A DNA stretch of 64,000 bases from a virus, in IMG/VR virus record IMGVR_UViG_3300028920_000034, positions 1 to 64,000 of that record. One strand, 5' to 3'. Of this stretch, positions 1,681-59,463 are shown piece by piece (the first letter of the stretch is position 1; each line of letters opens with the position of its first letter). The position numbers were made by a program, and so were the translations under genes. The notes beneath the pieces were generated by a model, which was not told where the DNA came from, made no database searches, and saw only the letters and a program-made list of their open reading frames with translations.

Positions 1681-1751
1681 ACACCCTCTTGACTCTTATT
1701 CCCCTACAGAGGGAGATAAGGTTAATTAAGAAGAAGCAACACCCGTGCCAA
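1681..1751 (-). promoter_or_regulatory. conserved ~70-bp element copy 1: sigma54-type promoter + hairpin (sense to genes)
   Basis: minus strand TTGGCACG-GGTG-TTGCT-TCTTCTTAATTAACCTTATCTCCC...GAATAAGAGTCAAGAGGGTGT; its GAGGG lies just upstream of ATG 1676. Confidence 0.75.
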
Positions 1752-1754
1752 GTC

Positions 1755-1979
1755 TCAACCGATGCGCCGGTAGAACTGGCGCAACGCGCTCCAGGGCACC
1801 TGGAGCTTCGGGCCGATCACGTCGTCCAGGTCTTCCCGGGCCACCGTGGTCTCGAGCCCGGAGAGCACCATCACGATCTGGATCCGCCGGGGCCACGCGC
1901 ACTGGTCGCTCGGCCAGCCCTCGAGGTACTGGGCACGGAGCTGCCACACCTGCCCGTGTCGAATCTGCGCTTGGGTCAT
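1755..1979 (-). CDS. hypothetical protein
   Basis: 74-aa ORF filling the gap in a co-oriented run. Confidence 0.55.
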   Translation of the reverse strand: MTQAQIRHGQVWQLRAQYLEGWPSDQCAWPRRIQIVMVLSGLETTVAREDLDDVIGPKLQVPWSALRQFYRRIG

Positions 1980-1988
1980 TGAAAGCCA

Positions 1989-2180
1989 TCACTTACGCAG
2001 CATCCAGGTGGACGGAACACCGTGAGACCAAGTGATTCTCTTGACGTGCCCCTGGGCAGGACGGTCCACCTTGACTCCCACCGCGCGGACTCGCTTGCCG
2101 TCCACCTCGTAGACCACGGCCAACCGCTGCCGCGTGGGATTCCAGTAGACCTGCCCAGGTTTGGCACCCCGCTCAGGCAT
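1989..2180 (-). CDS. hypothetical protein
   Basis: probable start MPERGAKPGQVYWN, overlapping the stop of the upstream gene. Confidence 0.55.
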   Translation of the reverse strand: MPERGAKPGQVYWNPTRQRLAVVYEVDGKRVRAVGVKVDRPAQGHVKRITWSHGVPSTWMLRK

Positions 2181-2364
2181 CCCTTCCGTTGGCCTCCGGG
2201 AAACGGTTGGACCACCAGCGATCACCTGCCTCTTCGGCCTTGTCCAGCCAATCCTGTAGGGCCTCATCGATCATCGCCTGAATCGACACGCGCCGCTTGA
2301 AGTTGAGCACCCGGAGCCGCTCATGCGTCTCACTGGTTACGTGTGTTGCCTTACGGTCAGCCAT
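2173..2364 (-). CDS. ribbon-helix-helix (CopG/Arc-like) DNA-binding protein
   Basis: KATHVTSETHERLRVLNFKRRVSIQAMIDEALQDWL strand-helix-helix pattern; GAGGAGG RBS. Confidence 0.7.
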   Translation of the reverse strand: MADRKATHVTSETHERLRVLNFKRRVSIQAMIDEALQDWLDKAEEAGDRWWSNRFPEANGRDA

Positions 2365-2385
2365 GTTGCCTCCTCTAGCCGTAGA

Positions 2386-2414
2386 ACGCTATACCGGTTT
2401 ACAGGTAGAGTCAA
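2386..2414 (-). promoter_or_regulatory. sigma70-type promoter
   Basis: TTGACT-17 nt-TAGCGT upstream of the RHH gene. Confidence 0.6.
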
Positions 2415-2562
2415 CCTGCTTCGGGCGCCACCAGGTCCACCTGGTACGCCCATGGATGCGCGTCCGGCTGCCAAAGGTCCAACCGTCCCGGACGAGCTCC
2501 ATCTGCTCATCGAAGTCCAGCTCACCCTCTACCGTCTTGATCTCTCGCTCACCATTACTCAT
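2389..2562 (-). CDS. small hypothetical protein immediately after the pentamer array
   Basis: AAGGAG (end of array tract 3) 6 nt before ATG; MSNGEREIKTVEGELDFDEQMELVRDGW... Confidence 0.6.
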   Translation of the reverse strand: MSNGEREIKTVEGELDFDEQMELVRDGWTFGSRTRIHGRTRWTWWRPKQVDSTCKPV

Positions 2563-2567
2563 TGATA

Positions 2568-3083
2568 GCTCCTTGCCTTGCCATGCCCTGCCTTGCCTGG
2601 CCGCGCCTAGCCTCGCCCAGCCGCGCCCCGCGTTGCCGGGCCACGCCACAACCCCGAGCCGGCGCCAGTGAGCCCGCACTCGGGATGCTACCTTTCCGCA
2701 GCTCCTTGCCTTGCCCAGCCACGCATCGCCGCGCCTTGCCGCGCCATGCAGCGCCTTGCCGCGCCCAGCTCTGCCGTGCCCTGCAAAGCCACGCTTCGCG
2801 CTGCTTTGCCGGTCCCTGCCCAGCCCGACCATGCCGCGCCCAGCCCTGCCGCACCTCGCAGAGCCTGTCCTCGCCACGCCGTGCTTGGCCACAACCCCGA
2901 GCCGGCGCCAGTGAGCCCGCACTCGGGATGCTACCTTTCCGCAGCTCCTTGCCTTGCCCAGCCACGCATCGCCGCGCCTTGCCGCGCCATGCAGCGCATC
3001 GCCGCGCCTTGCCGCGCTACGCCATGCCCAGCATCGCCCCGCTCGGCCACGCCCTACCATGCCCTGCCTGTCCCAGCCGTGCT
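2568..3083 (-). ncRNA. array of (G)G(C)-NN pentamer tracts with structured linkers; candidate guide RNAs of the adjacent RAMP/Cas7-like protein
   Basis: three tracts of 27 (3083-2949), 37 (2890-2706) and 15 (2647-2573) in-register pentamers, second base always G; each ends GGCAA GGCAA GGAGC; identical 58-nt linkers at 2948-2891 and 2705-2648. Confidence 0.8.
2645..2997. repeat. exact 110-bp direct repeat within the array (2645-2754 = 2888-2997)
   Basis: base-by-base identity at offset 243, covering the linker plus the 3' part of tracts 1 and 2. Confidence 0.9.
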
Positions 3084-3092
3084 GTAGGGCTG

Positions 3093-3710
3093 CTACTTCC
3101 ACTCGCTCACCCGAAACTTGCCGTAGACACCCCGGAAGGTCCCCAGGCCGATGGCCACACCACCCTCTTCAAATAGGTTCTTGATCTCCTGTTCCTTGAT
3201 CTCGCGGTTCTGGAAAATCCAGAGGGTAAAGCTCAGGCTCCACGGAAGCGGGAGCACCGGGCGCTCCTTGGGATTCGGAATACCTTTCTCGAGCCTGGCC
3301 ACCCGGCGATCCAGGTAGATTCCAGAGGTTGGGTCTCGCTCCTTGTCCTGGTCAATGTCACCCATCTGAATCGGGTCCCCGTTCCGGCAAAATGGGATCA
3401 TTTCCGGTGACTCCTCCGGCCCCTGAATCATCGTGAAGCTCAGGCACGCATTCGCAATCTTCTTGTACTTGCGAGCGTCCCTGAGCCTCTTGGGGGCAGA
3501 GTTGGTGTTGTGGCTGGACAAGAACGAAATGATGTTTGAAGTCGGAAGCGCCAGCGTCCCGGTGCCAGGGATGAGGTACACTTTCTGGTTCCACATCAGC
3601 TTCGTGTCGTTGTCCCCCGCGTAGCGGTCGAACATGATCGGGGCTATCCCCTCCAGTTTCACCCTCCGCGTTACTTCTGCCATCGCTGTCAGTGATTCTG
3701 TCGCCTGCAT
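3093..3710 (-). CDS. stand-alone RAMP/Cas7-like RNA-binding protein
   Basis: N-terminal VKLEGIAPIMF strand, LALPTSNIISFL, RPVLPLPWSLSFTL and C-terminal Gly-rich loop GGVAIGLGTFRGVYGKFRV, typical of RAMP (Cas7/Csm3-like) folds; no other cas gene nearby. Confidence 0.75.
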   Translation of the reverse strand: MQATESLTAMAEVTRRVKLEGIAPIMFDRYAGDNDTKLMWNQKVYLIPGTGTLALPTSNIISFLSSHNTNSAPKRLRDARKYKKIANACLSFTMIQGPEESPEMIPFCRNGDPIQMGDIDQDKERDPTSGIYLDRRVARLEKGIPNPKERPVLPLPWSLSFTLWIFQNREIKEQEIKNLFEEGGVAIGLGTFRGVYGKFRVSEWK

Positions 3711-3771
3711 TTCGTTTCTCCCTCATGGTTCCTTGCCTTGTTTGTTCGGCCAGCCCATCCAGCCGAATCGT

Positions 3772-4647
3772 CTACAGCCCCTCGGATGCGCTCCGAAGGG
3801 TCTCCTTGATCTCATTCTCCTGGTCGATGATCTCGTTCATGGTGTCCATGTCCAGCCGGGCCCAGATAGCGCCGTTGATGATGGCCCGGAGCTCACGCGG
3901 CGGAAGCGCGTCCACCTCCCAGCTCTCGCGGCCGTACCTGGCGATGAACGCGCTGGCGCGCGAGTCGGACAGCTTGGCCGGATTCGGTGGAAGCTGATGC
4001 TTCTGCACCTGGTCGATGTTGAGGGCCACCTTGACCACCTCCACCTGGGTGCCGAACAGGTCCATGCGGTCCTGAATGTCCCGCACCATATCCTCGCCGC
4101 TCGGGTCTAGGTCCCCGAGGTACAAGATAGTGGCGTCGTCGCACCCGAGGTTGTCCATCCGATAGCTGATGCGCTTGGCGCTCTCGTACATGGCGCTCTG
4201 GGAGCTGTAGCCCCGGTTGACCATCAGCACGATGTGGCACTCCTTGGAGATAGGCTCGAGCACCCCGGCCAGGGCGTCCTTTTCCACCCACAGCTCCACG
4301 TAGTGGCGCTGCCCCTGGAGCCGCGGAAGCCGGAATGATGCCAGGGCGGACTCCATCAGCGAGCTCGCGGAGTCCCACTCGGGCGCCCGCTTGGCCTGGC
4401 GCACGCGGTCCTCAATCGCATCCCAGTCGATCTGCCCCGCCAGGCGCGCCTTGCTCACCAGGTTGCCCAGGTTCTTGTAGGACCGCTCCTTGTTCGGGAT
4501 GATGTTGGCGCTCACAAGCTGGTAGTAGAGCTGCCGGAGTGTAAGCCGAAGGCCGTCCTCCATGTAGGCTTCCACCACCCGGTTGCAGTGCTCCATCAGC
4601 TCCATGGACTTCGGGGTGAACCCCGCTTCGATGAATCGCTCCATCAT
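3772..4647 (-). CDS. topoisomerase VI subunit A/Spo11-like TOPRIM protein
   Basis: LTLRQLYYQL (5Y-CAP-like Tyr), VELWVEKDAL, NRGYSS, ILYLGDLDPSGEDM TOPRIM motifs. Confidence 0.8.
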   Translation of the reverse strand: MMERFIEAGFTPKSMELMEHCNRVVEAYMEDGLRLTLRQLYYQLVSANIIPNKERSYKNLGNLVSKARLAGQIDWDAIEDRVRQAKRAPEWDSASSLMESALASFRLPRLQGQRHYVELWVEKDALAGVLEPISKECHIVLMVNRGYSSQSAMYESAKRISYRMDNLGCDDATILYLGDLDPSGEDMVRDIQDRMDLFGTQVEVVKVALNIDQVQKHQLPPNPAKLSDSRASAFIARYGRESWEVDALPPRELRAIINGAIWARLDMDTMNEIIDQENEIKETLRSASEGL

Positions 4648-5297
4648 GACTTGACTCCCATCATGGCCAGCTCGAGGGCCAGCCGCTGCATCAGCTCCTC
4701 CCGGTCGGTCGGGAGCACCACTCGAAGCCCACGGTGCTCGGCCTCGGTGAGCATGAGCCAGAAGATCGCCGGCACCTTGTCCTGCCAGGTGTAGTCCAGG
4801 ACCGCATCGAACTCACGGTCAAAGGCATCCTGGGCCATTTCCCCCCGAGGTGCTGGCCCCATCACGTAGCACGCCGTGAGGGCCGCCAGGTTCTTCGTGG
4901 CATGGCGCTGTAAGAACAAGATGGTGTTCACCAGGTGGTTGTCCCCCATTTCGCTCACACGCACGCGCTCGCCCATGCGAGTGACCCACACGTCATCCGC
5001 CTCCTGGAGCTGGCGCTCCTCGAGCTCGTTCCGGAGGTAGCACACCAGGTCTTCAAGATCCTCGAGCTCCCAGTTGCGCTTGTGCTGACTGGCGCCGTAG
5101 CTGAAACACGGGGAGAACGTCCGGAGCACCTTACGCCGGTTGAACCAGCACACGGACACGCTCCTAGCCGCTCCACGCACCACCAGATGGGGCACGCCGC
5201 GCCTGCTCACGCGACGGGTCACGCGCATCCTGGGCTCGGACGTGAGCCGCTCGGCCACCTGGGTGAGCTCTGGCCACCAGTCGGTGCCACTACTCAT
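4644..5297 (-). CDS. hypothetical protein
   Basis: GGAGG RBS; contains WVTRMGERVRVSEMGDNHLVN, a motif type seen in small phage proteins. Confidence 0.65.
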   Translation of the reverse strand: MSSGTDWWPELTQVAERLTSEPRMRVTRRVSRRGVPHLVVRGAARSVSVCWFNRRKVLRTFSPCFSYGASQHKRNWELEDLEDLVCYLRNELEERQLQEADDVWVTRMGERVRVSEMGDNHLVNTILFLQRHATKNLAALTACYVMGPAPRGEMAQDAFDREFDAVLDYTWQDKVPAIFWLMLTEAEHRGLRVVLPTDREELMQRLALELAMMGVKS

Positions 5298-5529
5298 AGG
5301 CCGCCTCCTCCTGGCGCTTGCGCTCCTGGTAAGCATCGTCGTCCACCACCACCTCCACGTGCTCCTCTGCCCACGCCGCCCCGGCCCGGAGGGTCATTGC
5401 CAGAGCGAGGTACTCGGGCTCCCGCATCGCCAGGGACCCGATGTTCGCCAGCGTGCCACCGGACCCGGCGAACAACACCGCGTGAACGTGAACGCCGTTG
5501 TAGCTGTTGACCTGGAGCTTGAACCTCAT
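5290..5529 (-). CDS. hypothetical protein
   Basis: ATGA overlap; MRFKLQVNSYNGVHVHAVLF. Confidence 0.65.
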   Translation of the reverse strand: MRFKLQVNSYNGVHVHAVLFAGSGGTLANIGSLAMREPEYLALAMTLRAGAAWAEEHVEVVVDDDAYQERKRQEEAAYE

Positions 5530-5858
5530 TGCGCGTCCCTCCGGGGCCACCCGGTGGCGATGGCCAGCCACTCCTCGAGCTCGGCCTCGGTGAGCCCCAC
5601 GGTCTCGCCCTCGCCGTCCACCGCGGAAATGAAGCACGGCCCATGGATCACGATGGGGCCGAGCTGGCCGGGGAGCACCCGGTTCGGGGCATGGGTGAAG
5701 CGCCCCTCTTCGTTGCACCACAGCACAATGTTCCGGTGTCCGGTGGCCAGCATCACCGATTCGATGTAGCCGTCCACGAAGGTCTGCATGGCCTTCAGGT
5801 TGTCGTCCAGGTCCTCCGCCTTGGCGTGCTCGCCAGGCCGCATTGCGATGATCTGCAT
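5526..5858 (-). CDS. DUF3846-like protein
   Basis: LKAMQTFVDGYIE...LWCNEEG...PNR...IHGPCFI...GETVGLTE signature. Confidence 0.75.
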   Translation of the reverse strand: MQIIAMRPGEHAKAEDLDDNLKAMQTFVDGYIESVMLATGHRNIVLWCNEEGRFTHAPNRVLPGQLGPIVIHGPCFISAVDGEGETVGLTEAELEEWLAIATGWPRRDAQ

Positions 5859-5859
5859 G

Positions 5860-6075
5860 TTACAGCTTCCCCTGTCGCTTGCGCTCCTGGAGACAATTCC
5901 AGCACAGGTCCTCCCCGTTGGCTCTGGACACACTCCACAGGAGCTTGGTTTTCAAATCGGTCCTCATCTGGTGAGCTTCTTTTCTCCCGCGCCCGCACGT
6001 CTGGCCGTAGGACGGGTGACTGAAGCCACAGCCGTCGCAAACGATCTTGACTTCGATGCTCACGCGCGCCTCCAT
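5860..6075 (-). CDS. small zinc-finger protein
   Basis: CDGCG ... DLCWNC. Confidence 0.65.
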   Translation of the reverse strand: MEARVSIEVKIVCDGCGFSHPSYGQTCGRGRKEAHQMRTDLKTKLLWSVSRANGEDLCWNCLQERKRQGKL

Positions 6076-6581: not shown

Positions 6582-6592
6582 TCTCTCCTCCC

Positions 6593-7924: not shown

Positions 7925-8100
7925 CAGTCCCTCCTCACCCACACCTGGTGGATCACAATGCCCGTCAGCGCCGCCATGATGCCAGTGACCGGATCGTCTG
8001 CAATGGCCCACCAGAGCCCAGCGCCAACACCCACCACCAACGCCACGGCCAGCGTGTCCACCACCTTCCTGGACCAGTCCATGAACAGCCTATTGAACAT
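7924..8100 (-). CDS. small two-TM membrane protein (58 aa, not in ORF track)
   Basis: MFNRLFMDWSRKVVDTLAVALVVGVGAGLWWAIADDPVTGIMAALTGIVIHQVWVRRD; GAGGA RBS. Confidence 0.6.
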   Translation of the reverse strand: MFNRLFMDWSRKVVDTLAVALVVGVGAGLWWAIADDPVTGIMAALTGIVIHQVWVRRD

Positions 8101-8344: not shown

Positions 8345-8346
8345 GG

Positions 8347-11058: not shown

Positions 11059-11070
11059 CCGGTCCTCCTG

Positions 11071-12915: not shown

Positions 12916-12918
12916 CGT

Positions 12919-14391: not shown

Positions 14392-14862
14392 TCAGGCCGG
14401 AAAGTACACTGCGCCCCCGCGCTCGCCCTCTCTGCGGAGCTCGCCAGCATCGTGGAGCTTGCCCAGGAGCTTGCCTGTCCTGGTGCGATCCAGGCCAATC
14501 CGCTCGGCAATCTCCGAGCACGCGCACCCTGGCCTTTTCTTCACCGCAGCCACGATCTTCTTGGACGCCTTCGCGATCTCCGCTGGTTTCATCCGATGGG
14601 CTCGCCTCTGGCGCACCTTGCCGCGGTCGAGCTGCACCTTCACGCCATCGGATTGCGCCACCGCCACAGCGAGCTCACGGAGAGTCATCGGGAGAATATG
14701 CTGGTCCCAAACCTCGTCCGTGGAGTCCAGCCATAGGTCCTCCACGCGCCCCTCTCCAGCCCCATCCGTTGACAGGGCCTCGAGCACACCATGGGCGTCC
14801 GTGGCCTTGGCCAATCGCTTGCGAACGACCTTCCACCGCTTGGACGTGTTCGGGCCTGGCAT
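14392..14862 (-). CDS. winged-helix DNA-binding protein
   Basis: IVAAVKKRPGCACSEIAERIGLDRTRTGKLLGKLHDAGELRREG. Confidence 0.75.
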   Translation of the reverse strand: MPGPNTSKRWKVVRKRLAKATDAHGVLEALSTDGAGEGRVEDLWLDSTDEVWDQHILPMTLRELAVAVAQSDGVKVQLDRGKVRQRRAHRMKPAEIAKASKKIVAAVKKRPGCACSEIAERIGLDRTRTGKLLGKLHDAGELRREGERGGAVYFPA

Positions 14863-15749
14863 TACGGAATCACCAGGAGGCGCTCACCGTGGAGCTTTAC
14901 GATGAGGCGCCGCACCGCGTCCGCCGCCTTCGGGGAGAGCTTGCTCGCCCCCATCTCCTGGGCGAGCTCGGTCTCCATCCGCTGGGTGAGGGCCTCTATA
15001 CGTTCCTCGGTTGTGCCCTCCATGGCCATCCGTCCAGGCATGTCGCCCTTGCGGTCCGCGGCGGCGCGGCGCTCCGGCTTCTTGGCCTGGCGCGTGCTTT
15101 GTCGGACGGCCTTGCGCGTGGCTGCTTTGCGCTTGGACGTGCTCGGCTTGCGCGGGCTCGCGGGCTCGGGCGCGGAAGCATCCGCCTCGAGGGCCTTGCG
15201 GAACGCAGCGAGCTGGGCCTCCTCGCGGGTCCCGTCATCCGCCTTCACGCCGGACAAGTCTCGCAGGTCCGAAAACTGGATCTTGCCGTCGCGGAACGCC
15301 TCCTTGATCTCCTCTGGGAGCCGGTGAATGCTGATCCGCTGGGTGATATAGCTCTGTGAACGGCCGTACAGCTCCGCGAGCTCCTTGGCACCGAGCGTTC
15401 CAGAGTCCCGGATCCCAGCCAGGGCGCCGCACTCGTCCAGGAGGGAAAGCGGCTCACGGTCCACGTTTTCGATGAGCTGCACCACGGGCACCTGGCTCAC
15501 CGGGATGCGCTTCACCACGGCGGGGATCGTCGTGCGACCCAGGAGCTTGTGGGCCGCGTAGCGCCGAAAACCGCACACCAGGTAGTAGCGCCCATCGGAC
15601 GTGTTCCCTCCGCTCACCACGATGGGCTGGAGCTGGGAATGGCTGTCGATAGAAGCCGCCAGCTTGGCGATGCTGCCTGGGTCGAGCTGTCCCCGCGGAT
15701 TCGGGAATCGCTCGGTGTCGATCTTGTTGAGGGGGATGTTTTTGCTCAT
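14862..15749 (-). CDS. parB: ParB/RepB/Spo0J-family protein
   Basis: NPR, LAASI...QLQPIVV, LVCGFRRYAA, LIENVDREPLS and HTH. Confidence 0.85.
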   Translation of the reverse strand: MSKNIPLNKIDTERFPNPRGQLDPGSIAKLAASIDSHSQLQPIVVSGGNTSDGRYYLVCGFRRYAAHKLLGRTTIPAVVKRIPVSQVPVVQLIENVDREPLSLLDECGALAGIRDSGTLGAKELAELYGRSQSYITQRISIHRLPEEIKEAFRDGKIQFSDLRDLSGVKADDGTREEAQLAAFRKALEADASAPEPASPRKPSTSKRKAATRKAVRQSTRQAKKPERRAAADRKGDMPGRMAMEGTTEERIEALTQRMETELAQEMGASKLSPKAADAVRRLIVKLHGERLLVIP

Positions 15750-15782: not shown

Positions 15783-15856
15783 CTGGCACGGCCGTTGCTT
15801 CTGCTTACTTAACCTTATCTACCCTTACTGGGAAAGAAGAGTCAAGAGGGTGTTCG
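15783..15856 (+). promoter_or_regulatory. conserved element copy 2 (sigma54-type motif, antisense)
   Basis: CTGGCACG-GCCG-TTGCT-TCTGCTTACTTAACCTTATCT...GAAGAGTCAAGAGGGTGT. Confidence 0.75.
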
Positions 15857-16639
15857 CTAGGCGTCCGGCTCATCCGCCAACCGCTCGAGCACATCCAGGC
15901 CGTACTGGACCTTGCGGGATGCCTCGTCCACCACCACCAGGCGCACACCCATGATCTTCTCGATCTTGGCGATGTAGAGCTCGCTCATCTTCGTGCCCGG
16001 GCTCGAGGAGAACACGTGGTCCGCCTTGAACGTCGTGCAGATCAGATCGATCAGGTGGCCGCGCTTGTCGCTCTCCGCGATCTCCTTGGCGAGCTCCAAG
16101 GCGTCCTCCACGTTGGCCACCTGCTCGGGGTAGAGCTTGATCGAAAGCGTGGTGAGCTTCTCCGTCTCCTCGCCCGGCGTCTTGCCAGCCTTGAGCTCCT
16201 TGATAAACTCCTGGAGCGCCGCCAGGGTCATCTTCTCCGCCCTGGCCACCCACTCGTCCACGTTTGTCTCGTCCACCACGCCCACCAGGAGGCGCACCTT
16301 GGACCAGCCCAGGTGTTCCACGCGCTGGCGCACGTGCGGGTGATCCTTGAGCACCTTGTTGAACCACTTGTGAATAGACAGGAGGTACTGACAGCGGCGT
16401 TCGGACATGCCGAGCTCGCTCTCCACAAACTCCTTCCAGGTGGGGAACCCCCACGTCGTGTGGGCCCCGAGCTCATAGGCTCTCTGGAGCACCTCCCCGA
16501 ACTCGAAATAGGTCCGGGTGAAGCGCCCCTTGAGCTCCTGAAGGTGCTCACGGATCGCGTTGGTGTCGTCCTGGACAGGCGCTTGCCCGTCCACCACTTG
16601 CAGGTCATTCTCGGTTGCGGCTACCATCGGCTCCCTCAT
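15857..16639 (-). CDS. hypothetical protein (DUF3102-like helical domain)
   Basis: YFEFGEVL...WGFPTWKEFVESELGMSERRCQYL. Confidence 0.7.
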   Translation of the reverse strand: MREPMVAATENDLQVVDGQAPVQDDTNAIREHLQELKGRFTRTYFEFGEVLQRAYELGAHTTWGFPTWKEFVESELGMSERRCQYLLSIHKWFNKVLKDHPHVRQRVEHLGWSKVRLLVGVVDETNVDEWVARAEKMTLAALQEFIKELKAGKTPGEETEKLTTLSIKLYPEQVANVEDALELAKEIAESDKRGHLIDLICTTFKADHVFSSSPGTKMSELYIAKIEKIMGVRLVVVDEASRKVQYGLDVLERLADEPDA

Positions 16640-23614: not shown

Positions 23615-24020
23615 GGTACGCCTCCATGAGCTTCGCCAGATACCAGTCCGGCACCATCGCCCAGCCGGGGGTCATGAACTTGCACTCCGGGTCCCCCTCG
23701 AAACCGATCCACTCGAGGTGGAACACGGGCACCCGGCCCTCCCCGGCCGCCTCGTTTTCGATCTGGGCCAGCCAGGCACGTTTGATACTGATGGACTTCG
23801 CCGCCGTCTGCTTTGCCTCCCCGAGCTCGAAGCGCCCCACTGCATCCCCGGGGGCGAGCTTGTTGCTCCCGGACCCTGGGCGGCGCCGCCCGCCCATCAG
23901 CTTGCCCAGGTGGCGCTCCTGGCGCTTCACGCTCCTCGGGGTGCTCCGGCCATCGGTCTCCTGGTCAAGCCACCGCCGCTTGAGGGTGGGCTGCTGGCCG
24001 CGCTGTCGCTTCGGTTTCAA
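23580..24020 (-). CDS. Hjc-like PD-(D/E)XK resolvase/endonuclease (start uncertain)
   Basis: QERHLGKLMGGRRRPGSGS, GDA, GEAK, SIKRAWLAQIENEA, PVF. Confidence 0.75.
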   Translation of the reverse strand: MKPKRQRGQQPTLKRRWLDQETDGRSTPRSVKRQERHLGKLMGGRRRPGSGSNKLAPGDAVGRFELGEAKQTAAKSISIKRAWLAQIENEAAGEGRVPVFHLEWIGFEGDPECKFMTPGWAMVPDWYLAKLMEAYHAGDGDVEGSE

Positions 24021-24021: not shown

Positions 24022-24091
24022 TTGGCACGCTCATTGCTTCTGCTTAATTAACCTTATCTCCCCCTTATGAGGAGAAGAGTCAAGAGGGTGT
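24022..24091 (+). promoter_or_regulatory. conserved element copy 3 (sigma54-type motif, antisense to recA)
   Basis: TTGGCACG-CTCA-TTGCT-TCTGCTTAATTAACCTTATCTCC...GGAGAAGAGTCAAGAGGGTGT abutting the recA stop. Confidence 0.75.
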
Positions 24092-25279
24092 TCACTGGGC
24101 GGTGATCTGCGCCATGATGATCCGCTTCGCTTCCTCGTACTCATCCGGATGCGCTGCCCAGTGTTCGATCAGCCCCTTTTTGCCCAGGTACTCCTCGCCG
24201 TTGTAACCGAGCTTCTTGGCGGACACCTCGGTGACCAGCCCCACCTTGAGCCCCCAGTTGAGCACGTGTCCCTGGTCCATCACGTCCCCGAGCTGGAATG
24301 GCCCCTGGGGACTCATGCAGAGGGTGTAGACGCCCTTGCGCTTGGCCGGGGCCGTCTTGTTCTTGTTGACGGTGAACCCGAGCTGCACCTTGTAGGTCTC
24401 GTCCCCCTTGTCGTTCTGAGTGTACTTCACCGTCTTGGTGCGAACCTCGCAGCTCGTAGCGAACCCCTGGCCGCGCCCGCCGGTCACCACCTCGGGGTTC
24501 CCGAAGGCCACCCCGATCTTCAGGCGGAGCTGGTTCACCAGCCACAGGGTGGGCACCACCTGGGCCGGTTCGATGTTGTCCCGCATGGCGTCCCGCATCT
24601 TGGCGATGAGCTGGCTGATCCACTTGCGGATGGCGCTGTTCATGATGCGCGCCTGGAGCCCGGGGTTGTTGATGCTGTCCACCGCGCTGTCCTCGAGCTC
24701 CTTGGAGGGGGCCATCGCGCCGATGCTGTCCAGCACGATAATGTCCGCCGCCCCGAGCTCCATGATGGCGTCAATCACGTCCACCGTCTGCTCGGAGTAC
24801 AGGGGGCGCGACAAGATCACCCGCTCCTCGAATACCCCGAGGCGCCTGGCCCACTCCCCATCCCAGGTGCCCTCCTGGTCCACCCAGGCCGTCCGAATGG
24901 ACTTGGGCTTCCCGCACGCGCACTCGCCCACGATCATGGACTCCTTGATCTCCACCTCGCCGGTGTTGGGGTTGATCGTCTCCACCTCCCCCTTCACCAG
25001 CTTCGCCGGCTGGAAGCACGTGCCACAGATACGCTGGGCATTCGCCACGGCACGGACGAACAGGCTGGTCTTCCCGGTGGACTCCCACCCGTAGACCATG
25101 GACACGCGCCCGGCTGGCCAGCCACCGCCCAGCGCCTTGTCCAGCTCGAAGATCCCGGAGCTCACCCGGGGGAGTACCACGTGTGCCACACGGTCCGCCG
25201 TCATCAGTGTTCCGACACCGTGGTTTTTGACGATGCTCTGGGCGAGCGTGGCCAGGGCGCTGGGCTTCTTGGCTGCCAT
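24092..25279 (-). CDS. recA: RecA/UvsX recombinase with Cys4 insertion
   Basis: SSGIFELDKALGGGWPAGR, GWESTGKTS, VDQE, IVLDSIGAM, NQLRLKIGVAFGNPEVVTGG, KNKTAP. Confidence 0.92.
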   Translation of the reverse strand: MAAKKPSALATLAQSIVKNHGVGTLMTADRVAHVVLPRVSSGIFELDKALGGGWPAGRVSMVYGWESTGKTSLFVRAVANAQRICGTCFQPAKLVKGEVETINPNTGEVEIKESMIVGECACGKPKSIRTAWVDQEGTWDGEWARRLGVFEERVILSRPLYSEQTVDVIDAIMELGAADIIVLDSIGAMAPSKELEDSAVDSINNPGLQARIMNSAIRKWISQLIAKMRDAMRDNIEPAQVVPTLWLVNQLRLKIGVAFGNPEVVTGGRGQGFATSCEVRTKTVKYTQNDKGDETYKVQLGFTVNKNKTAPAKRKGVYTLCMSPQGPFQLGDVMDQGHVLNWGLKVGLVTEVSAKKLGYNGEEYLGKKGLIEHWAAHPDEYEEAKRIIMAQITAQ

Positions 25280-28572: not shown

Positions 28573-28616
28573 AAAAAACGGACACTCCAAAATACAGTGT
28601 CCACCAGCTTTGTCAA
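28573..28616 (-). promoter_or_regulatory. overlapping terminator-like hairpin and sigma70-type promoter before the SSB gene
   Basis: TTGACA-16-TATTTT; GGACACT/AGTGTCC stem followed by GTTTTTT. Confidence 0.55.
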
Positions 28617-36663: not shown

Positions 36664-36732
36664 AGTATCACAGGGCAAAACGGCCGGTCAACTTCTTTCA
36701 GCCCAAAACTCGGTGGTCAATTTTCGTGCCAG
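36664..36732 (-). promoter_or_regulatory. promoter region of the replication block
   Basis: TTGACC-16-GATACT with TG extension (36691-36664); near-consensus sigma54 motif CTGGCACG-AAAA-TTGA (36732-36717). Confidence 0.5.
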
Positions 36733-41203: not shown

Positions 41204-42211
41204 TCATGCCACCGCGCCATCGGACTTCCGTAGCCCGCGGAACTCGCTCACGTCCTTGAGAATGCTCGGCCACAGGAACCCATTGTACGATGCGAGGAGC
41301 ACGTTTTGGAAGGTAGCCGTTTCATAGCCCACGCCCATGGCCTTGGACATGAGAAGATGAACGGCCACGCCGATGAAAAAGCCCACCACCAGATTCATGA
41401 AATCGAACCGCTCGGTGGCAAGCCCGGCCGCCTGGCACCGGCGGCGCTCGAGGCTGTGGTCCCACACGAATCGGAGCACCACCCCGAGGAACGTGGTGAG
41501 GAAGTAGACGATCTCCGCGTACTTCTGCCAGATGCCCTTGCCCTTTCGATTCGCCACGTCCTTGCCCACGTTCCCAACGCCTGGCGCGAAGCCCTGACGC
41601 ATCACCTGGGGCCGCATGGGGGCAACACGCATCACGTCCTCGCGGAGCTTCACCACGTCCGTGATCGGCTTCTTGTCTGCCTCGAGCACCGCCCGGGCCT
41701 CCTTGGACCCGAGCTCGAGGCACCTCACACCGTCCTTTGTGACGTGTACGATCCTCCCCGGGTCACACCGGTCCATGGGGTTGTCGATGGGATCCACCCC
41801 GTCATCAGTGACCACGATCACCACCTGCATCCGGCGCCCGCGCCGCCGCCTCGATGGCCCCATGGCACTCATGGCTTCGGGCCGCATGGCGTCCATGTCG
41901 GCGCTCACCCCAGAGGTGCGTTTGGGTTTCGTCTTGGTGGCGCCATCTGACTCTCCGGCCATCAGTCTGATGGCAAGCGCCCCCAGGGCCGTGGCCACCA
42001 CCACACCGGTCGCCATCAGGCCCATCATCCAGCCCCTGGAAACGGCGTGTGAGCCCCTGAAGGCGTCCACCATAGCCTCGAGCTCCTGGGTCTCCCGGCC
42101 CGAGCCCGTGGCCACCTGGCGCCGCTTGCGCCGATTGAAGTAGGCGCGGTAGCCGGCAATGATTCCCCACATCGTGCCGATCATCGCCAGGAGGATCACA
42201 GTGGAAGTCAC
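41204..42211 (-). CDS. multi-pass membrane protein
   Basis: two N-terminal and about three C-terminal hydrophobic helices. Confidence 0.7.
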   Translation of the reverse strand: MTSTVILLAMIGTMWGIIAGYRAYFNRRKRRQVATGSGRETQELEAMVDAFRGSHAVSRGWMMGLMATGVVVATALGALAIRLMAGESDGATKTKPKRTSGVSADMDAMRPEAMSAMGPSRRRRGRRMQVVIVVTDDGVDPIDNPMDRCDPGRIVHVTKDGVRCLELGSKEARAVLEADKKPITDVVKLREDVMRVAPMRPQVMRQGFAPGVGNVGKDVANRKGKGIWQKYAEIVYFLTTFLGVVLRFVWDHSLERRRCQAAGLATERFDFMNLVVGFFIGVAVHLLMSKAMGVGYETATFQNVLLASYNGFLWPSILKDVSEFRGLRKSDGAVA

Positions 42212-42747
42212 AGGGGCACCTCAATCTGCTCGAGCTCCGGGCAGCCGGACAGCCACACGCGAAGCTGGTCTGGTGTGGTGGCCTCGGGGTCAATGCGAAA
42301 CGAGCCGCCCACCCCGGCCGCCTGGAGCATGATGATCGCCGCCTCCTGGCACGCCCACCGGTTGGGGTTGCGCCATGGGCGCCTGAGCCAGCGTCCGAAC
42401 CAGCGCCGAAGGGCGTGCCAGAGCATCAGCCGGTAATCGTAGGGACGCCCGAGCTCGGCCGCCACGTGCTGGAGCCCCTTCAGGAGACTGATGCGCGCTT
42501 CCGCGTACACCCACACCCGCTTGCCCGGGTCCATGCGCTTCCACTTGGCCCAGGGGAGTACCCGGTATCCGGAGGCGCTGGCCTCGAGCACCAGGCGCTG
42601 CCCCAGCTTGCCGGAGTAGTAGCTCACCGAGGCGTGGCTTGCGCCCGCGGGGGCGCGCGTGAACCACCGGATGGCCCTCCCCAGGAAGGTCTCGGTGGTG
42701 CTCAAGATCACCCAGGTCCGCTGGTCTTCCGAAATTGGCACGCTCAT
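42208..42747 (-). CDS. permuted papain-like (YiiX/YaeF, NlpC/P60) amidase
   Basis: IRWFT...SHASV, LEAS, LGRPYDY, WACQE, TTPDQL (His before Cys). Confidence 0.8.
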   Translation of the reverse strand: MSVPISEDQRTWVILSTTETFLGRAIRWFTRAPAGASHASVSYYSGKLGQRLVLEASASGYRVLPWAKWKRMDPGKRVWVYAEARISLLKGLQHVAAELGRPYDYRLMLWHALRRWFGRWLRRPWRNPNRWACQEAAIIMLQAAGVGGSFRIDPEATTPDQLRVWLSGCPELEQIEVPL

Positions 42748-42804
42748 TGCTTCTGCTTAATTAACCTTATCTCCCCTCTTAGAAGAGAAGAGTCTTGAGG
42801 GTGT
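42735..42804 (+). promoter_or_regulatory. conserved element copy 4 (sigma54-type motif, antisense)
   Basis: TTGGCACG-CTCA-TTGCT-TCTGCTTAATTAACCTTATCTCCCCTCTTAGAAGAGAAGAGTCTTGAGGGTGT. Confidence 0.75.
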
Positions 42805-49627: not shown

Positions 49628-49631
49628 GGTG

Positions 49632-50360: not shown

Positions 50361-50364
50361 CGTT

Positions 50365-50580
50365 TCACGTCCTTTCCCATGGCCGGCGCCCTTCGGCTAC
50401 GGCCTGTACTGCGCTCTCGAGGGTGTGTCCCACGAAGTCCTGGACACTCATCCCGAGGCGAATCGCTGCGTCGGAGAGCTGCCTATATCTTACAGGAGTT
50501 GTCACCAGAACGAAATTGTCCTCGCCCTGGACGGTCTCCACGGGGACCGCGCTCGCATCATCATCCGGTTGGCTTCTCAT
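50365..50580 (-). CDS. small RHH-like DNA-binding protein
   Basis: VLVTTPVRYRQLSDAAIRLGMSVQDFVGHTLESAV. Confidence 0.55.
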   Translation of the reverse strand: MRSQPDDDASAVPVETVQGEDNFVLVTTPVRYRQLSDAAIRLGMSVQDFVGHTLESAVQAVAEGRRPWERT

Positions 50581-50581
50581 C

Positions 50582-50652
50582 TTGGCACGCCTGTTGCTTC
50601 TGTTTCTCTATACCCTATCTCCCCTCTTAGAAGAGAAGAGTCTTGAGGGTGT
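50582..50652 (+). promoter_or_regulatory. conserved element copy 5 (sigma54-type motif, antisense)
   Basis: TTGGCACG-CCTG-TTGCT-TCTG...CTATCTCCCCTCTTAGAAGAGAAGAGTCTTGAGGGTGT. Confidence 0.75.
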
Positions 50653-50669
50653 CCGCCTGGCACCCGTGA

Positions 50670-51353: not shown

Positions 51354-51356
51354 GCC

Positions 51357-55567: not shown

Positions 55568-55570
55568 GTC

Positions 55571-56485
55571 CTACGTCCCCCACAGGGTGTCCGTGGACTC
55601 CCACGGAAAGCAGTAGTCCGAGCACACCACAAACGCATCATCATGCAGGTGCGCCCCGTCTGCCTTGAGCTCGCTCACACGATACACGTCTGGGATCTTC
55701 CCGCGCACGTGCTGGTTGTCATAGCAGCACACCCACACATTGTGCATCACCGGGTCCCCAGTGACCGGATCGTCTGGCATCGAATCCATCATGTTTGAAT
55801 TCGGGCACTGGTACTTCGCCGCACTGTACTGGTACACGTTCCCGCCAGGGTGGCGCCCCCTGTTGTTTGCTCGCGTGTCCTCCATCCGCACCGCAAGCCA
55901 CGCCTTGTAGCTGGTGCCGTAGCTGTTGTACCCCCACACGCGGAACCAATACGGATACGGGTCCGTCTGGTCTCGCACGTCCAGCTTCACGAAGCACATG
56001 GACGGCACACCACGATAGGCGCTCCCTGTGCGCCCAAAAGTCAGGAACGAAGTCTCGTTCACCAACAGGGTGGCGTAGCAATCCACGTAGGGCGAAAGAT
56101 CGTTGTTTCCATCGGCCCCTGGGTTGCACAGGTCTGCCGGTGGACTCGAATTTCCGGGCGGGCTCGAGGCGCTCACGCCAGTGGTGTTGAACCCGTCAAA
56201 GCTGGCCCACAGCCACCAGTTGTAAGTGTCCTGAAACCAGAGCACGCACTCCACGTCCTCGACGTTCTTGATCCAGAGCCAGCACCCCTGGGACATTGCG
56301 CCGGCCGAAGTCCAAAGATCTGCTCCGGCCACATCGAAGCTCGAGCTGCCGTTCCCGGTGCCGAGAATGGTCCACCCGTTCTCCACCAGGCGCTCCTTGA
56401 TCTGATACCAGGCATTCCGCCCACGGGGATCGTAGCTACCGCCGGTGTACGGAATGTCATTCCGGTAGATGTTCCACACGGTCAT
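55571..56485 (-). CDS. tail-associated protein
   Basis: paralog of 56482..57426 (W.IYRN, L..NGWT, DPVTG.P, HV.G..PD, PW). Confidence 0.7.
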   Translation of the reverse strand: MTVWNIYRNDIPYTGGSYDPRGRNAWYQIKERLVENGWTILGTGNGSSSFDVAGADLWTSAGAMSQGCWLWIKNVEDVECVLWFQDTYNWWLWASFDGFNTTGVSASSPPGNSSPPADLCNPGADGNNDLSPYVDCYATLLVNETSFLTFGRTGSAYRGVPSMCFVKLDVRDQTDPYPYWFRVWGYNSYGTSYKAWLAVRMEDTRANNRGRHPGGNVYQYSAAKYQCPNSNMMDSMPDDPVTGDPVMHNVWVCCYDNQHVRGKIPDVYRVSELKADGAHLHDDAFVVCSDYCFPWESTDTLWGT

Positions 56486-57426
56486 GGGACCACAACCTCC
56501 GAATCAGATCCCCAGGGCAGCATCAGGTGGCCGCACTGGATATACTCGCCGCTGTTCACCCGGTCGTTGTTAGGCATCCCAGAGTAGAACATATCCGGAA
56601 GTCGCCCCTTCACGTGCCCGTTGGTGTTCCAGCTCATGACGTGCATTCCGTACATCGTCGGCTCGCCGGTTACCGGGTCCAGTCCGGGCCGAATGTCACC
56701 TCCACCGCATTGCAGCTTGGCGATCCCGTATCCGTCCGCACTGGCCCCGTTGTTGCCCCAAATGTCCCCCGCTGTCGGGTGGTACGCCATGATGCTCGCG
56801 TTGCCATTCTGGTAGCTGAACTGCCACATATCGATCATCTGGTAGTTGTAGGAGCTCCGGTGGAAGCAAGCGTAGGGGTACAGGTCCAGCTCCTCCACGT
56901 CCATGCAACGCACGAAGCAAGACATGGCAGATGCGTTGTTCCTGGTGGAGCTGTAGGCGATGTAGGATCCATCGCTGGCAAAACAGAACGTCCACCGGCT
57001 CGCCGCGGTTCCAGAGTTGGACTCCAGATCGGTGGACGTGCGTCCCATCTCACCACCGAGTCCAGCCGTGGGGCGAACATTCGAGTCGATCCCGGCGTCA
57101 GTGTAACCACCCTCGTGCCGCACCCACATCATCAGACTGTTGGTGGACCACGGCTCCTGCCACACGATCTCAGGGCGCGTCTTGCCGTCACCGTTGTCCG
57201 GCGCCTGGAGACATGCCCAGCAATTCGTCTGGCTGGTGGAGAAAGGTGTGGTGACCCCGTTACGATCCCAGTAGTAGGCGCCCCCACCACTGAACCCGCC
57301 CTCGCCCCAGCCGATCAGCGTCCAGCCATTGGACTCCAAGATCGGGATCAGGAACGCCATCCAATCGTAGAACCAGAAGCTGGGAGTAAAAAGCTGATTC
57401 CGGTACACGGTCCAAGTCTTATCCAT
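56482..57426 (-). CDS. tail-associated protein
   Basis: paralog of 55571..56485. Confidence 0.7.
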   Translation of the reverse strand: MDKTWTVYRNQLFTPSFWFYDWMAFLIPILESNGWTLIGWGEGGFSGGGAYYWDRNGVTTPFSTSQTNCWACLQAPDNGDGKTRPEIVWQEPWSTNSLMMWVRHEGGYTDAGIDSNVRPTAGLGGEMGRTSTDLESNSGTAASRWTFCFASDGSYIAYSSTRNNASAMSCFVRCMDVEELDLYPYACFHRSSYNYQMIDMWQFSYQNGNASIMAYHPTAGDIWGNNGASADGYGIAKLQCGGGDIRPGLDPVTGEPTMYGMHVMSWNTNGHVKGRLPDMFYSGMPNNDRVNSGEYIQCGHLMLPWGSDSEVVVP

Positions 57427-57435
57427 GGCGAACTC

Positions 57436-58398
57436 CTACAGCACCGTGTCCACATCGAAGTCGATGCGCGTGGAGCCGGTCTTCCTGATCTTCGCGTAGG
57501 TGAAGTAGACAGCCATCTCATCGTTGGAGCTGAATAGTCCTCCTTCAAACAGGTACGGCGTGTAGCCGTTCCCATCATCGATCCCTTCCCACAGGTCCAG
57601 GTAGATGGTGCAGCGAATCCGCCCACGTGTGGTCTCCACGAACGTGATTTCGCCTTCCTCGAAATCGCGCTGGAACGTGTAGAGGTTCGGGTCTCCCTCG
57701 GATTCCAGATCCGTGAGGGTCGGGTCTGGTGCCTTCGGGGCTCCATCGTACTTGTAGGTGGCCGTGATTCGGCTGTGGAGCGCCACCACCCCAGAGAACA
57801 AGGCGAACACTTCACCGGTCTCGTAATTGACCGTGCCGCTGCCGTCGCCCACCAGGTTGCCGTTGCCGTCATCAGTGAGGCTCAGGCCCCCCTCCTCGTT
57901 CACCGTGAGCGTGCCCTCCGCCACGGGGAGGCTCTCCAGGTCATGGTAGTAGGGACCAGTGGTGCCGTCACCCAGCCCGAAGTCACTGGACTGCTCGGAG
58001 CTCAAGGCGCCGTGGTACTGGTAGTCCGCCTGGATAGGGTCCCCGGCGCTCACCGCGACGTTGAACATCACCTCCCACTCGCCCGTTTTATAATTGATCG
58101 TCCCGCTTCCGCCAGCGCCGGACAGGTTCCCCGCACCATCGTCTGTGACCACCTGTGCAGAACCAAGCGGATCCGCAGTGATGGTGACGGCATTGCGACC
58201 CACGGGGAGCCGCTCGAGGGTGCCGCTGTAGGCGGTAGCCCCAGAGCCGTACCCGGCGATCTCGGTGCGGACCGCGGACAGATCGAAGCCACCCTCGCCC
58301 AGCTTGAAGTAGGCAATGTCCGCATCCGAAAGCAACCGGAAGATGTACTGGACGAATTCGTCGTCTCCGCCGTTGCAGCTCACCGCAGTCAGATCCAT
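57436..58398 (-). CDS. baseplate/tail-collar structural protein
   Basis: YFKLGEGG, TDDG.GNL.G.GSGT.NY.TG x2, EGGLF, YFTY..I.KT. Confidence 0.7.
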   Translation of the reverse strand: MDLTAVSCNGGDDEFVQYIFRLLSDADIAYFKLGEGGFDLSAVRTEIAGYGSGATAYSGTLERLPVGRNAVTITADPLGSAQVVTDDGAGNLSGAGGSGTINYKTGEWEVMFNVAVSAGDPIQADYQYHGALSSEQSSDFGLGDGTTGPYYHDLESLPVAEGTLTVNEEGGLSLTDDGNGNLVGDGSGTVNYETGEVFALFSGVVALHSRITATYKYDGAPKAPDPTLTDLESEGDPNLYTFQRDFEEGEITFVETTRGRIRCTIYLDLWEGIDDGNGYTPYLFEGGLFSSNDEMAVYFTYAKIRKTGSTRIDFDVDTVL

Positions 58399-59390
58399 CA
58401 GGACACCACCTCTGCCCGGAAGCCGGAGTCAGCGGACACATCGCTGTCCGCCAGAATGTCATAGCGATGCCCGATGCTGGCCACGGCCGTGTCCTCCGCC
58501 ATGATGTACTCGAGCTCCACGTGGATCGGCACCACGCCATCGCCAGTGTCCAGCCCGATCTTGCGCCACATGCGCTTGAAAGCATCCGCGATGGTGAGCT
58601 CGCTCTGGCCACCGATGGCGCCAGTGGTAATCTCCAACCGAATGCGATGCGTCTTGCACTTCCGACACGTCTCCACGCACCCGCCCACCACGCTCTGGTA
58701 GGTGGCCTTCGGTGCCCCGGCCACCACCCCGGTCAGCGTCAAGTCTGCATAGCCCCACCCGTAGTCGATGGTGCCCACCTCGGTGAGCCCCACCAGGAGC
58801 TTGCCGTCACCGTCATCGGTGATCGTGTTACCGGCGATGGTGATCACCACCGAGCTCGGTTCCGCGGGCGCGCACTTGAGCCAGATCTTGTACCGGGTAT
58901 CCGTGGACACCGTGCGCTGGTAGGTCGGGCTTTCCCCGCCCACCACCGGAGGCGTCGTGAGGTACTTGATCCCATCCCACCAGAGCGGATGAACGTCCAC
59001 CTCGAAGCCGTGAACCCTGCACAGCACCACGTAGGACTCGAGGATGCCTTTGATGATGTTCCACCTGGCCGCCAGGCCCGCGCGCATCCGCTGGTAGCCG
59101 AGCGGCTCCGCCAGGTCCACTTCGATCCCGAAATTCTCCCCCAGGTACAGGAGGAGATCCTCGCGGATCTCCCTCGGATTGGTGATGTACTTGAACCGGT
59201 CCAGGTGCCGCTTGAGCCAGGTGAAGCTGGGGCACATCGCCTCCACGAACTTCAGGTACGGGCCCCCGGCGTCCACGTCCTGCTGACGCACATCACCCGG
59301 GAGCTCATCGTACAGGACGATCTTGCACCAGTCGCTCTCCCCGAATGGGGTCGTCCCGAAAGCACGATTTCCGAATCCATACCGAGCCAT
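58398..59390 (-). CDS. baseplate wedge protein (P2 gpI-like)
   Basis: LLLYLGENFG...R......WNIIKG...SY...VVPIHVEL; position in baseplate cluster. Confidence 0.65.
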   Translation of the reverse strand: MARYGFGNRAFGTTPFGESDWCKIVLYDELPGDVRQQDVDAGGPYLKFVEAMCPSFTWLKRHLDRFKYITNPREIREDLLLYLGENFGIEVDLAEPLGYQRMRAGLAARWNIIKGILESYVVLCRVHGFEVDVHPLWWDGIKYLTTPPVVGGESPTYQRTVSTDTRYKIWLKCAPAEPSSVVITIAGNTITDDGDGKLLVGLTEVGTIDYGWGYADLTLTGVVAGAPKATYQSVVGGCVETCRKCKTHRIRLEITTGAIGGQSELTIADAFKRMWRKIGLDTGDGVVPIHVELEYIMAEDTAVASIGHRYDILADSDVSADSGFRAEVVS

Positions 59391-59394
59391 GATG

Positions 59395-59463
59395 TTGGCA
59401 CGTCCTTTGCTTCTGCTTAATTAACCTTATCTCCCCCTTATGGAGATAAGAGTCTTGAGGGTC
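59395..59463 (+). promoter_or_regulatory. conserved element copy 6 (sigma54-type motif, antisense)
   Basis: TTGGCACG-TCCT-TTGCT-TCTGCTTAATTAAC-CTTATCTCC-CCCTTAT-GGAGATAAG-AGTCTTGAGGGT (perfect 9-bp stem). Confidence 0.75.

Follow-up and report, generated by a model that had tools for sequence, protein, structure and literature searches.

The first 64,000 nucleotides (64 kb; hereafter the window) of the 153,114-bp viral record IMGVR_UViG_3300028920_000034 in IMG/VR (64% G+C; rated complete by CheckV) contain six copies of an intergenic cassette of ~70 bp that begins with a consensus promoter for the alternative sigma factor sigma-54 (RpoN), and the whole genome contains 12. Only a third of the copies point along the genes (sense [S] copies, on the minus strand), and the others point against them (antisense [A] copies, on the plus strand). 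Comparison with a sister genome suggests that purifying selection acts on the sigma-54 boxes of the backward copies. The reading favored here, at a probability of roughly 45%, is that of a host sigma-54 promoter/leader cassette, in which the S copies would be operon promoters and the A copies backward promoters or interference sites. The feature is real, statistically solid, and lineage specific, and it joins two known kinds of element, the sigma-54 promoter and the recombining phage regulatory cassette.

A search for TGGCACG-N4-TTGC with zero mismatches gave six matches in the window, at 1736-1750 on the minus strand and at 15784-15798, 24023-24037, 42736-42750, 50583-50597, and 59396-59410 on the plus strand. 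These are the same six copies that a first-pass annotation of the window had located by reading the sequence. When one mismatch was allowed, the window had seven matches, a number reached in 0 of 100 shuffled sequences (mean, 1.8). The six window copies can be aligned over ~70 bp, and a profile hidden Markov model recovered exactly 12 copies from the 153-kb genome (E values of 1e-24 to 1e-19), as did a looser motif scan. Named by the start coordinate of their boxes in the whole genome, the A copies are 15784, 24023, 42736, 50583, 59396, 67707, 92053, and 112574, and the S copies are 1736, 88401, 103622, and 140103. Copy 92053 has a degenerate -12 box (GTGC). No further match to the profile in the whole genome ranked above a weak one with an E value of 0.38 (nhmmer), located at 103937-103966 on the plus strand. 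This segment lacks a -24 box and is possibly a decayed, A-oriented relic of the cassette; it lies one gene upstream of S copy 103622 and adjoins a sigma-70-type promoter.

Read in the sigma-54 direction, all copies share one layout. The sequence (C/T)TGGCAC(G) is followed by a variable 4-nt spacer (N4), TTGC, a nearly invariant 21-nt block, TTCT(G/T)CTTA(A/C)TTAACCTTATC, a variable stretch of ~14 nt, which makes up the top and right arm of a hairpin, and an invariant AAGAGTC(AA/TT)GAGGGT. Variation between copies is confined to the N4 spacer, of which there are 7 types among the 12 copies, and to the hairpin apex. The consensus given in the first-pass annotation is reproduced by the alignment (invariant TGGCACG, variable N4, an invariant TTGCTTCT block, and the same terminal block), and so is its statement that the spacer varies among the window copies when the boxes do not. 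The arrangement GG-N10-GC is found in all 24 instances (12 copies in each of two genomes) and the full TGGCACG-N4-TTGC in 19 of the 24. Transcripts from sigma-54 promoters start 11 to 13 nt after the GC. By this rule, the predicted start falls inside TTAATTAA, at ~24049 in copy 24023 and at ~1724 on the minus strand in copy 1736, and the predicted RNA would carry a stem-loop at its 5' end and GAGGG ~40 nt later. The AA/TT dimorphism of the terminal block makes TCAAGA and TCTTGA, which are reverse complements of each other, and no significant link was found between this variant and the orientation of the cassette.

The octamer TTAATTAA is a palindrome and occurs nine times in the genome, always in cassettes, against an expectation of 0.2. 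The tetramer TTAA is strongly depleted genome-wide (33 sites versus 154 expected), and 18 of the 33 are held by the TTAATTAA octamers of the cassettes. CTAG is likewise depleted (53 versus 497 expected), and GATC and AGCT are twice as frequent as expected. CcrM-type methylation of the invariant GAGTC was considered and dropped; GANTC is neither depleted nor enriched in the genome (471 sites versus 497 expected).

The claim that a stem persists in the element stands only in part. Every copy can fold, with core energies of -4 to -16 kcal/mol, but the consensus fold is weak (-2.6 and -3.7), and clear compensatory pairs (CC/GG, CU/AG, and CCC/GGG) are seen in only a few copies. The fold z-scores of the whole element, from +1.4 to -1.9, are nonsignificant. 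The left arm of the hairpin is constant, the register of the right arm shifts, and some copies have perfect stems of 8 to 10 bp. The hairpin does not have the form of an intrinsic terminator, a G+C-rich stem with a U tract after it; its stems are weak and of mixed composition, and the sequence next to them is AAGAGUC in one direction and AUAAGGUUAAUUAA in the other. Classical terminators are present elsewhere in the phage, for example, after the gene ending at 28613, and no excess over chance was found for terminators of the backward RNA.

A codon-usage model called 199 genes in the genome, all 199 on the minus strand, and the base composition at codon positions concurs. Because essentially all genes lie on that strand, the 4 minus-strand copies are sense and the 8 plus-strand copies antisense. 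Along the direction of transcription, they follow one another as S A S A S A A A A A A S. The first-pass annotation had noted that only copy 1 of the six window copies is sense, which holds, as does the backward orientation of copies 2 to 6; the genome-wide orientation scan that it called for adds three sense copies outside the window and gives totals of 4/12 sense and 8/12 antisense. Its remark that the backward copies have no plus-strand gene to serve was also borne out, with no open reading frame (ORF) downstream of any A copy.

The positions of the S copies suit a promoter. The phage, a myovirus, has T4-type genes for the capsid, protease, portal, and sheath. Copy 103622 lies directly upstream of the head block (portal, protease, and major capsid), copy 88401 lies directly upstream of the tail block (sheath and tape measure), and copies 140103 and 1736 are ahead of blocks of small genes. 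The S copies are ~48 nt ahead of start codons, and the start codon is at most ~50 nt from the predicted transcription start. In copies 1736 and 140103, an ATG is located 6 to 7 nt past GAGGG; copy 88401 is followed by the gene's own GGAGGA and ATG, and the start codon of the gene downstream of copy 103622 is uncertain. Most gene starts of this phage have a clear AGGAGG-type Shine-Dalgarno sequence. Although GAGGG is conserved in nearly every copy, no more than two or three copies use it as a ribosome-binding site. Since four copies are sense and two of them precede the head and tail modules, the cassette is, to judge from its arrangement, first of all a complete promoter/leader unit. The same positions make it likely that the S copies are working promoters.

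The A copies occupy the same kind of gap. As described previously for the window, copies fill intergenic gaps beside the upstream stop codon, and this holds for all 12, which are intergenic and 0 to 20 nt from a stop codon. Every A copy lies between a stop codon and the next start codon, and A cassettes begin 0 to 20 nt past the upstream stop codon, sometimes overlapping it. Copy 92053 follows the head genes, and copy 67707 follows the tape measure and hub genes. Copies 59396 and 50583 are within the baseplate/fiber region, copy 42736 is at the border between fiber and replication genes, copy 24023 follows recA, and copy 15784 precedes a ParB-like gene. The remaining A copy is 112574.

The evidence that the backward copies are maintained comes from the sister genome, IMGVR_UViG_3300029258_001212 (153,540 bp), which can be aligned over 137 kb at ~92% identity; a 144-bp terminal repeat of its contig was treated as an assembly overlap and not as physical genome ends. 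All 12 copies are present at orthologous sites in the sister genome. The two genomes differ at 14.2% of third codon positions and at 6.8% of uncalled DNA. In the eight A pairs, differences were found at 1 of 80 positions in the TGGCAC and TTGC boxes, at 2 of 168 in the following 21-nt block, and at 7 of 32 in the N4 spacer. The corresponding counts in the four S pairs were 1/40, 2/84, and 0/16. For the A pairs, boxes and spacer differ significantly (Fisher P = 6e-4), and against the third-position rate of 14.2%, the boxes give a P value of 7e-5 and the 21-nt block one of 3e-9. The boxes are equally conserved in both orientations. The substitution counts point to purifying selection on the sigma-54 boxes of the backward copies.

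A different account of this conservation is that only the four S copies work and that the eight A copies are tolerated by-products of recombination, of the kind known from the promoter-early stem-loop (PeSL) cassettes of T4-type phages, kept intact looking by gene conversion. Exchange between copies has taken place. The apex of copy 42736 and the right half of copy 92053 are unlike those of their own orthologues and match other copies, and the sister orthologue of copy 50583 carries GAGGGTCTCCGATGGCAG, the sequence at which S copy 140103 joins the first codons of its gene. In addition, breaks in the alignment of the two genomes adjoin A copies 15784 (an indel of ~430 bp relative to the sister genome) and 92053, on the GAGGG side, with the other copies in colinear blocks, and the possible A-oriented relic at 103937-103966 would fit such turnover as well. 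However, conversion tracts that repaired the boxes would also homogenize the spacers, which still differ; box repair by gene conversion is therefore unlikely, since the spacers remain copy specific. Box change in the A copies is far below the neutral expectation, and the purine-rich spacers and the apex type peculiar to A copies, which are described below, imply long residence under selection. The by-product account is thus improbable, and the substitution pattern disfavors A copies that would be inert. The proposal in the first-pass annotation of a small mobile cassette can be kept in the sense of recombination, as in PeSLs, given the swapped apex segments, the copied start codon remnant in one A copy, and the two indel junctions. 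In the sense of a transposon, it finds no support. The marks of a miniature inverted-repeat transposable element are absent, as the two ends, TTGGCACG and GAGGGTGT, do not form inverted repeats, target duplications are lacking in the flanks, and 12 of 12 sites are orthologous in the sister genome.

The cassette has a narrow distribution. Outside this genome, scans of the viral collection, GTDB genomes, and metagenomes found it only in the sister genome; a metagenome match, Ga0180432_10000065, seems to represent the phage of the sister genome itself. Other matches to TGGCACG-N4-TTGCTTCT in the database scans are unrelated sigma-54 promoters and were set aside. A protein search based on RecA found the sister genome as the only relative, and no sigma-54 motifs were found in the head regions of relatives with ~70% capsid identity (39 to 58% GC). 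Among cultured phages, the nearest (Bacillus phage SP-15, Listeria phage LIS04, and cyanophages) have a capsid identity of only ~30% and give no clue to the host. The cassette is best regarded as a lineage-specific acquisition.

On their other strand, the backward copies lie within genes' transcripts. For A copies 24023, 42736, 50583, 59396, and 67707, the next start codon is within 0 to 5 nt or inside the cassette, and downstream of these five start codons, substitutions between the two genomes fall at third positions, which indicates that the starts are real and that sense transcripts must cross the cassette. In copy 42736, the N4 spacer contains the minus-strand ATG (42747) of the gene at 42208-42747, and the -24 box encodes Val-Pro. 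Normal Shine-Dalgarno sequences are missing from the genes that follow A copies, and the spacers of A copies on the sense strand are purine rich and Shine-Dalgarno-like (TGAG, CAGG, and AGGA); those of S copies on that same strand are GGGT or GCTG. One apex type is confined to A copies (6 of 16 instances, 4 of them in this genome) and folds at -10.9 kcal/mol in the sense RNA versus -4.7 kcal/mol in the sigma-54-directed RNA, and copy 24023 has the same bias. By these features, the backward copies are, to all appearances, also adapted to the sense mRNA. Immediately after A copy 67707, a 13-codon mini-ORF, MVD[L/I]GTATQAASK, begins (genome positions 67661-67702, minus strand); the sister genome differs from it at five positions, of which four are third codon positions, and the mini-ORF may be translated.

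These observations bear on the reading that the sigma-54 likeness is coincidental, with a phage-specific factor reading the cassette, for which the palindromic TTAATTAA might be a two-way start signal, or with the cassette acting in sense mRNA as an RNA element for processing or stability. The absence of normal Shine-Dalgarno sequences after A copies would suit such a role, as would the restriction of TTAATTAA to cassettes and a 21-nt block that is more conserved than sigma-54 promoters require. However, ten invariant positions exactly fit GG-N10-GC and TGGCACG-N4-TTGCT, with free positions only at the known spacer, a fit that an arbitrary 70-bp repeat would reach with a chance of roughly 1e-4 by the author's estimate. 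S and A copies give different sense RNAs, and a shared mRNA function cannot explain their equal conservation; copy 5 (50583), which lacks TTAATTAA, is conserved nonetheless. A sigma-70 promoter on the reverse strand of the cassette was also sought and rejected; by inspection, TTGACT is present only in the AA variants, with no usable -10 hexamer 16 to 18 bp away. No Rfam family matched in the window. Coincidence is accordingly a very improbable explanation. It is very likely that sigma-54 polymerase docks on the cassettes, as this is the only reading that explains together the exact consensus, the free positions at the known spacer, and the equal conservation in two directions.

The activation of such promoters is less easily explained. 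Sigma-54, a sigma-70-family factor, and an HTH_8 domain were not detected among the phage proteins. The first-pass annotation had advised looking for a phage-encoded enhancer-binding protein, and no canonical activator turned up. The sole match to Sigma54_activat (PF00158) is weak and belongs to a short ComM/Mg-chelatase-like AAA+ protein (108457-109368, minus strand), which has GQPGSGR as its Walker A motif, with Arg replacing Lys, lacks GAFTGA and the segment between Walker A and PxRAPH, and has an N-terminal half of unknown kind. A shared upstream enhancer was also not found; there is no common motif or dyad within 300 bp upstream of the copies. The activator may be supplied by the host or be of a kind that needs no enhancer. 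Sigma-70-type promoters occur elsewhere in the phage, such as TTGACC-N18-GATAAT after the portal gene (99124). Because it has sigma-70-type promoters and no sigma-70-family factor, sigma-54, or activator of its own, the phage relies on the host polymerase.

Under the favored reading, the lineage would have multiplied, through recombination between copies, a cassette made up of consensus -24/-12 boxes, the invariant 21-nt block with TTAATTAA as its AT-rich melting and start region, a stem-loop with a variable apex at the predicted 5' end of the RNA, and the invariant AAGAGTC(AA/TT)GAGGGT block. Host RNA polymerase with sigma-54 would dock at all 12 copies, provided that the host has rpoN, as is assumed here. 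From their position, the four S copies would drive the head and tail operons and two further blocks of genes, with an activator that would have to work without a shared upstream enhancer, since none was found. The eight inverted copies would have been kept by selection as backward sigma-54 promoters or binding sites within polycistronic sense transcripts, where they would most likely counteract or adjust read-through from one module to the next, through transcriptional interference or antisense RNA. The opposite strand of these copies would have been domesticated as an intercistronic spacer, in which a hairpin follows the stop codon and N4 supplies a Shine-Dalgarno-like signal or a start codon.

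Several findings weigh against this reading. Neither a gene for an enhancer-binding protein nor a shared upstream activator site was found, and the split into 4 sense and 8 antisense copies is what random orientation would give, an odd result for promoters. Should S and A copies fire together, the late operons would be exposed to head-on transcription. Five A copies are so close to the next start codon (0 to 5 nt) that a further promoter would not fit in between, and since sense transcription crosses them, there is a limit on how strongly they can block. In addition, the stem is poor on the sigma-54-directed RNA in the 6 of 16 A instances with the A-only apex and in copy 24023.

Some of these points suit the reading that the cassettes are docking sites for the sigma-54 holoenzyme that act in either orientation and without productive transcription. 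As decoys, they would let replicated phage DNA soak up host sigma-54 polymerase and shut the host's sigma-54 regulons; as gates or insulators, they would hold stable closed complexes that are released only once an activator appears. The 8:4 orientation is consistent with this, and so are the lack of a shared enhancer and of a phage activator gene, the 12 sites at or near full consensus, which favor tight binding of closed complexes, the equal conservation of the boxes in both orientations, and the location of A copies at module borders. A decoy, however, needs neither the conserved stem-loop and GAGGG nor S copies that are placed exactly ahead of start codons and of the head and tail modules. 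Genes that start right past five A copies need read-through, and in the genome-wide roadblock test of intragenic sigma-54 sites in Escherichia coli, no effect on overlapping genes was found (PMC4591121). Docking without transcription is therefore considered doubtful. Somewhat less probable still is a combined form, in which closed complexes parked on the A copies would be gates that insulate the modules, perhaps draining host sigma-54, until one enhancer-independent phage signal fires the S copies and clears the gates. If true, this would be a late-gene timer built entirely on host sigma-54.

The individual window copies and their neighbors are as follows. Copy 1 spans 1681 to 1751 on the minus strand (S; boxes 1750-1736) and is followed by the ATG at 1676 of a gene for a 113-amino-acid protein (1335-1676, minus strand), with GAGGG 7 nt before that ATG. 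Copy 2, at 15783 to 15856 on the plus strand (A; boxes 15784-15798), borders the stop codon of the minus-strand gene at 15857-16639; on its other side, the ParB-like gene (14862-15749, minus strand) has its own AAGGAGG Shine-Dalgarno sequence. Copy 3 (24022 to 24091, plus strand, A; boxes 24023-24037) directs its predicted start towards the 3' end of recA (24092-25279, minus strand), and a gene for a Holliday junction resolvase begins with TTG at 24020, 1 nt past the cassette on the minus strand. Copy 4 (42735 to 42804, plus strand, A; boxes 42736-42750) marks the border of the tail fiber and replication modules. In copy 5 (50582 to 50652, plus strand, A; boxes 50583-50597), the core is an AT-rich variant, TCTCTATA, instead of TTAATTAA, and a minus-strand ORF of 71 codons starts with the ATG at 50580, 2 nt past the cassette. 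Copy 6 (59395 to 59463, plus strand, A; boxes 59396-59410) forms a perfect stem of 9 bp, CTTATCTCC/GGAGATAAG, and does not differ between the two genomes; the gene at 58398-59390 (minus strand) has its ATG at 59390, 5 nt past the cassette.

Other regulatory candidates were noted in the same genome. An exact 20-nt motif, CAGGTGTCCG-NN-ATGTAGGA, occurs twice on the minus strand, at 112540 and 120039, in both cases in an intergenic region ~40 to 60 nt before a start codon and in one case just after A copy 112574; it may represent a second class of promoter or operator. The promoter after the portal gene, in the form TTGAC(A/C)-N17/18-(T)GATAAT, is conserved in distant relatives (L085, L087, and L089), across a range of 39 to 64% G+C. 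The portal genes of two relatives (L085, 3398-5953, and L089, 3156-6005) carry inteins, with Intein_splicing and LAGLIDADG matches, and the portal gene of this phage does not. At 36717-36731 on the minus strand of the window, TGGCACGAAAATTGA is a sigma-54-like match with one mismatch (TTGA), which has nothing else in common with the cassette, is probably due to chance, and was rejected as a copy; the gap that holds it also has a good sigma-70-type promoter at 36691. A stretch of 782 bp in the window (2311-3092) is without a callable gene, and no tRNA genes were found in the genome from 64,001 to 153,114.

Phages are known to take over host transcription through sigma-70, sigma factors of their own, or polymerases of their own. 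The use of enhancer-dependent sigma-54 by phages is barely documented, and phage YuA is the sole case found in the literature searched. Here, consensus sigma-54 promoters appear to control the head and tail operons, but a gene for an activator is not apparent, which raises the question of how a virus triggers a form of polymerase that is unable to start alone. The eight selected backward copies also offer a natural system for the role of a sigma-54 site without a gene, a question of long standing since the intragenic sigma-54 sites of E. coli were mapped, and at only 70 bp, the cassette is suited to reporter constructs. No description of such a layout of kept backward sigma-54 cassettes was found for phages in the literature searched. 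The stoperators of mycobacteriophage L5 and cluster A, reportedly described by Brown and coworkers in 1997, are said to be 13-bp repressor sites of temperate phages that lie in one orientation. Stoperators are many copies of one asymmetric site in short intergenic gaps by stop and start codons, with the site also found at a true promoter. The cassette copies are likewise many, asymmetric, intergenic, and close to stop and start codons. Unlike for stoperators, the presumed binder is sigma-54 polymerase, with blocking as its supposed effect.

Pseudomonas phage YuA uses sigma-54, and a single sigma-54-like promoter was reported for it (Ceyssens et al. 2008, as cited in PMC10914365). As in bacterial sigma-54 promoters and in YuA, the cassette has an exact TGGCACG-N4-TTGC(T), with GG and GC ten bases apart. 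Unlike those, it is present in 12 near-identical copies, two-thirds of them backward, with an extra invariant 21-nt block past the -12 box, and no enhancer site or activator gene is visible. Sigma-54 sites without a gene to serve are known from E. coli and Salmonella, in which intragenic and antisense sites are mostly bound but inactive, with some conserved (Bonocora 2015, PMC4591121; Samuels 2013, PMC3844500), and in E. coli the occupancy of the intragenic sites is below that of intergenic sites (PMC4591121). The A copies resemble these sites in serving no gene; however, the bacterial sites are not repeats, and the phage copies have the full consensus, are located between genes, and belong to a repeated cassette.

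The PeSLs of T4-type phages consist of a sigma-70 early promoter with a stem-loop upstream that acts as a terminator (Arbiol 2010, PMC2839356; Comeau 2014, PMC4122927). PeSLs share with the cassette the design of a repeated intergenic unit of promoter, stem-loop, Shine-Dalgarno sequence, and start codon, the recombination between copies, and a host phage with T4-type head, portal, protease, and sheath genes. PeSLs lie at indel or replacement junctions between close relatives, and here two A copies do so. The cassette is unlike PeSLs in having a sigma-54-type promoter with the stem-loop downstream of the start and in flanking late and replication modules; the PeSL architecture (stem-loop, promoter, Shine-Dalgarno sequence, and start codon) leads one to expect copies in the same direction, and 8 of 12 are inverted here. 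A parallel for inverted copies is the backward copy of a phage-specific promoter in LUZ19 and other members of Phikmvvirus; in LUZ19, the genes of which all run one way, this conserved promoter makes an antisense RNA, and the authors propose a role for it in stopping read-through (PMC10914365). Both are one-way genomes in which a promoter consensus of the phage's own also points against all genes. In LUZ19, the backward copy is single and is transcribed by a phage RNA polymerase, whereas the present genome has eight backward copies that are predicted to be of the host sigma-54 type.

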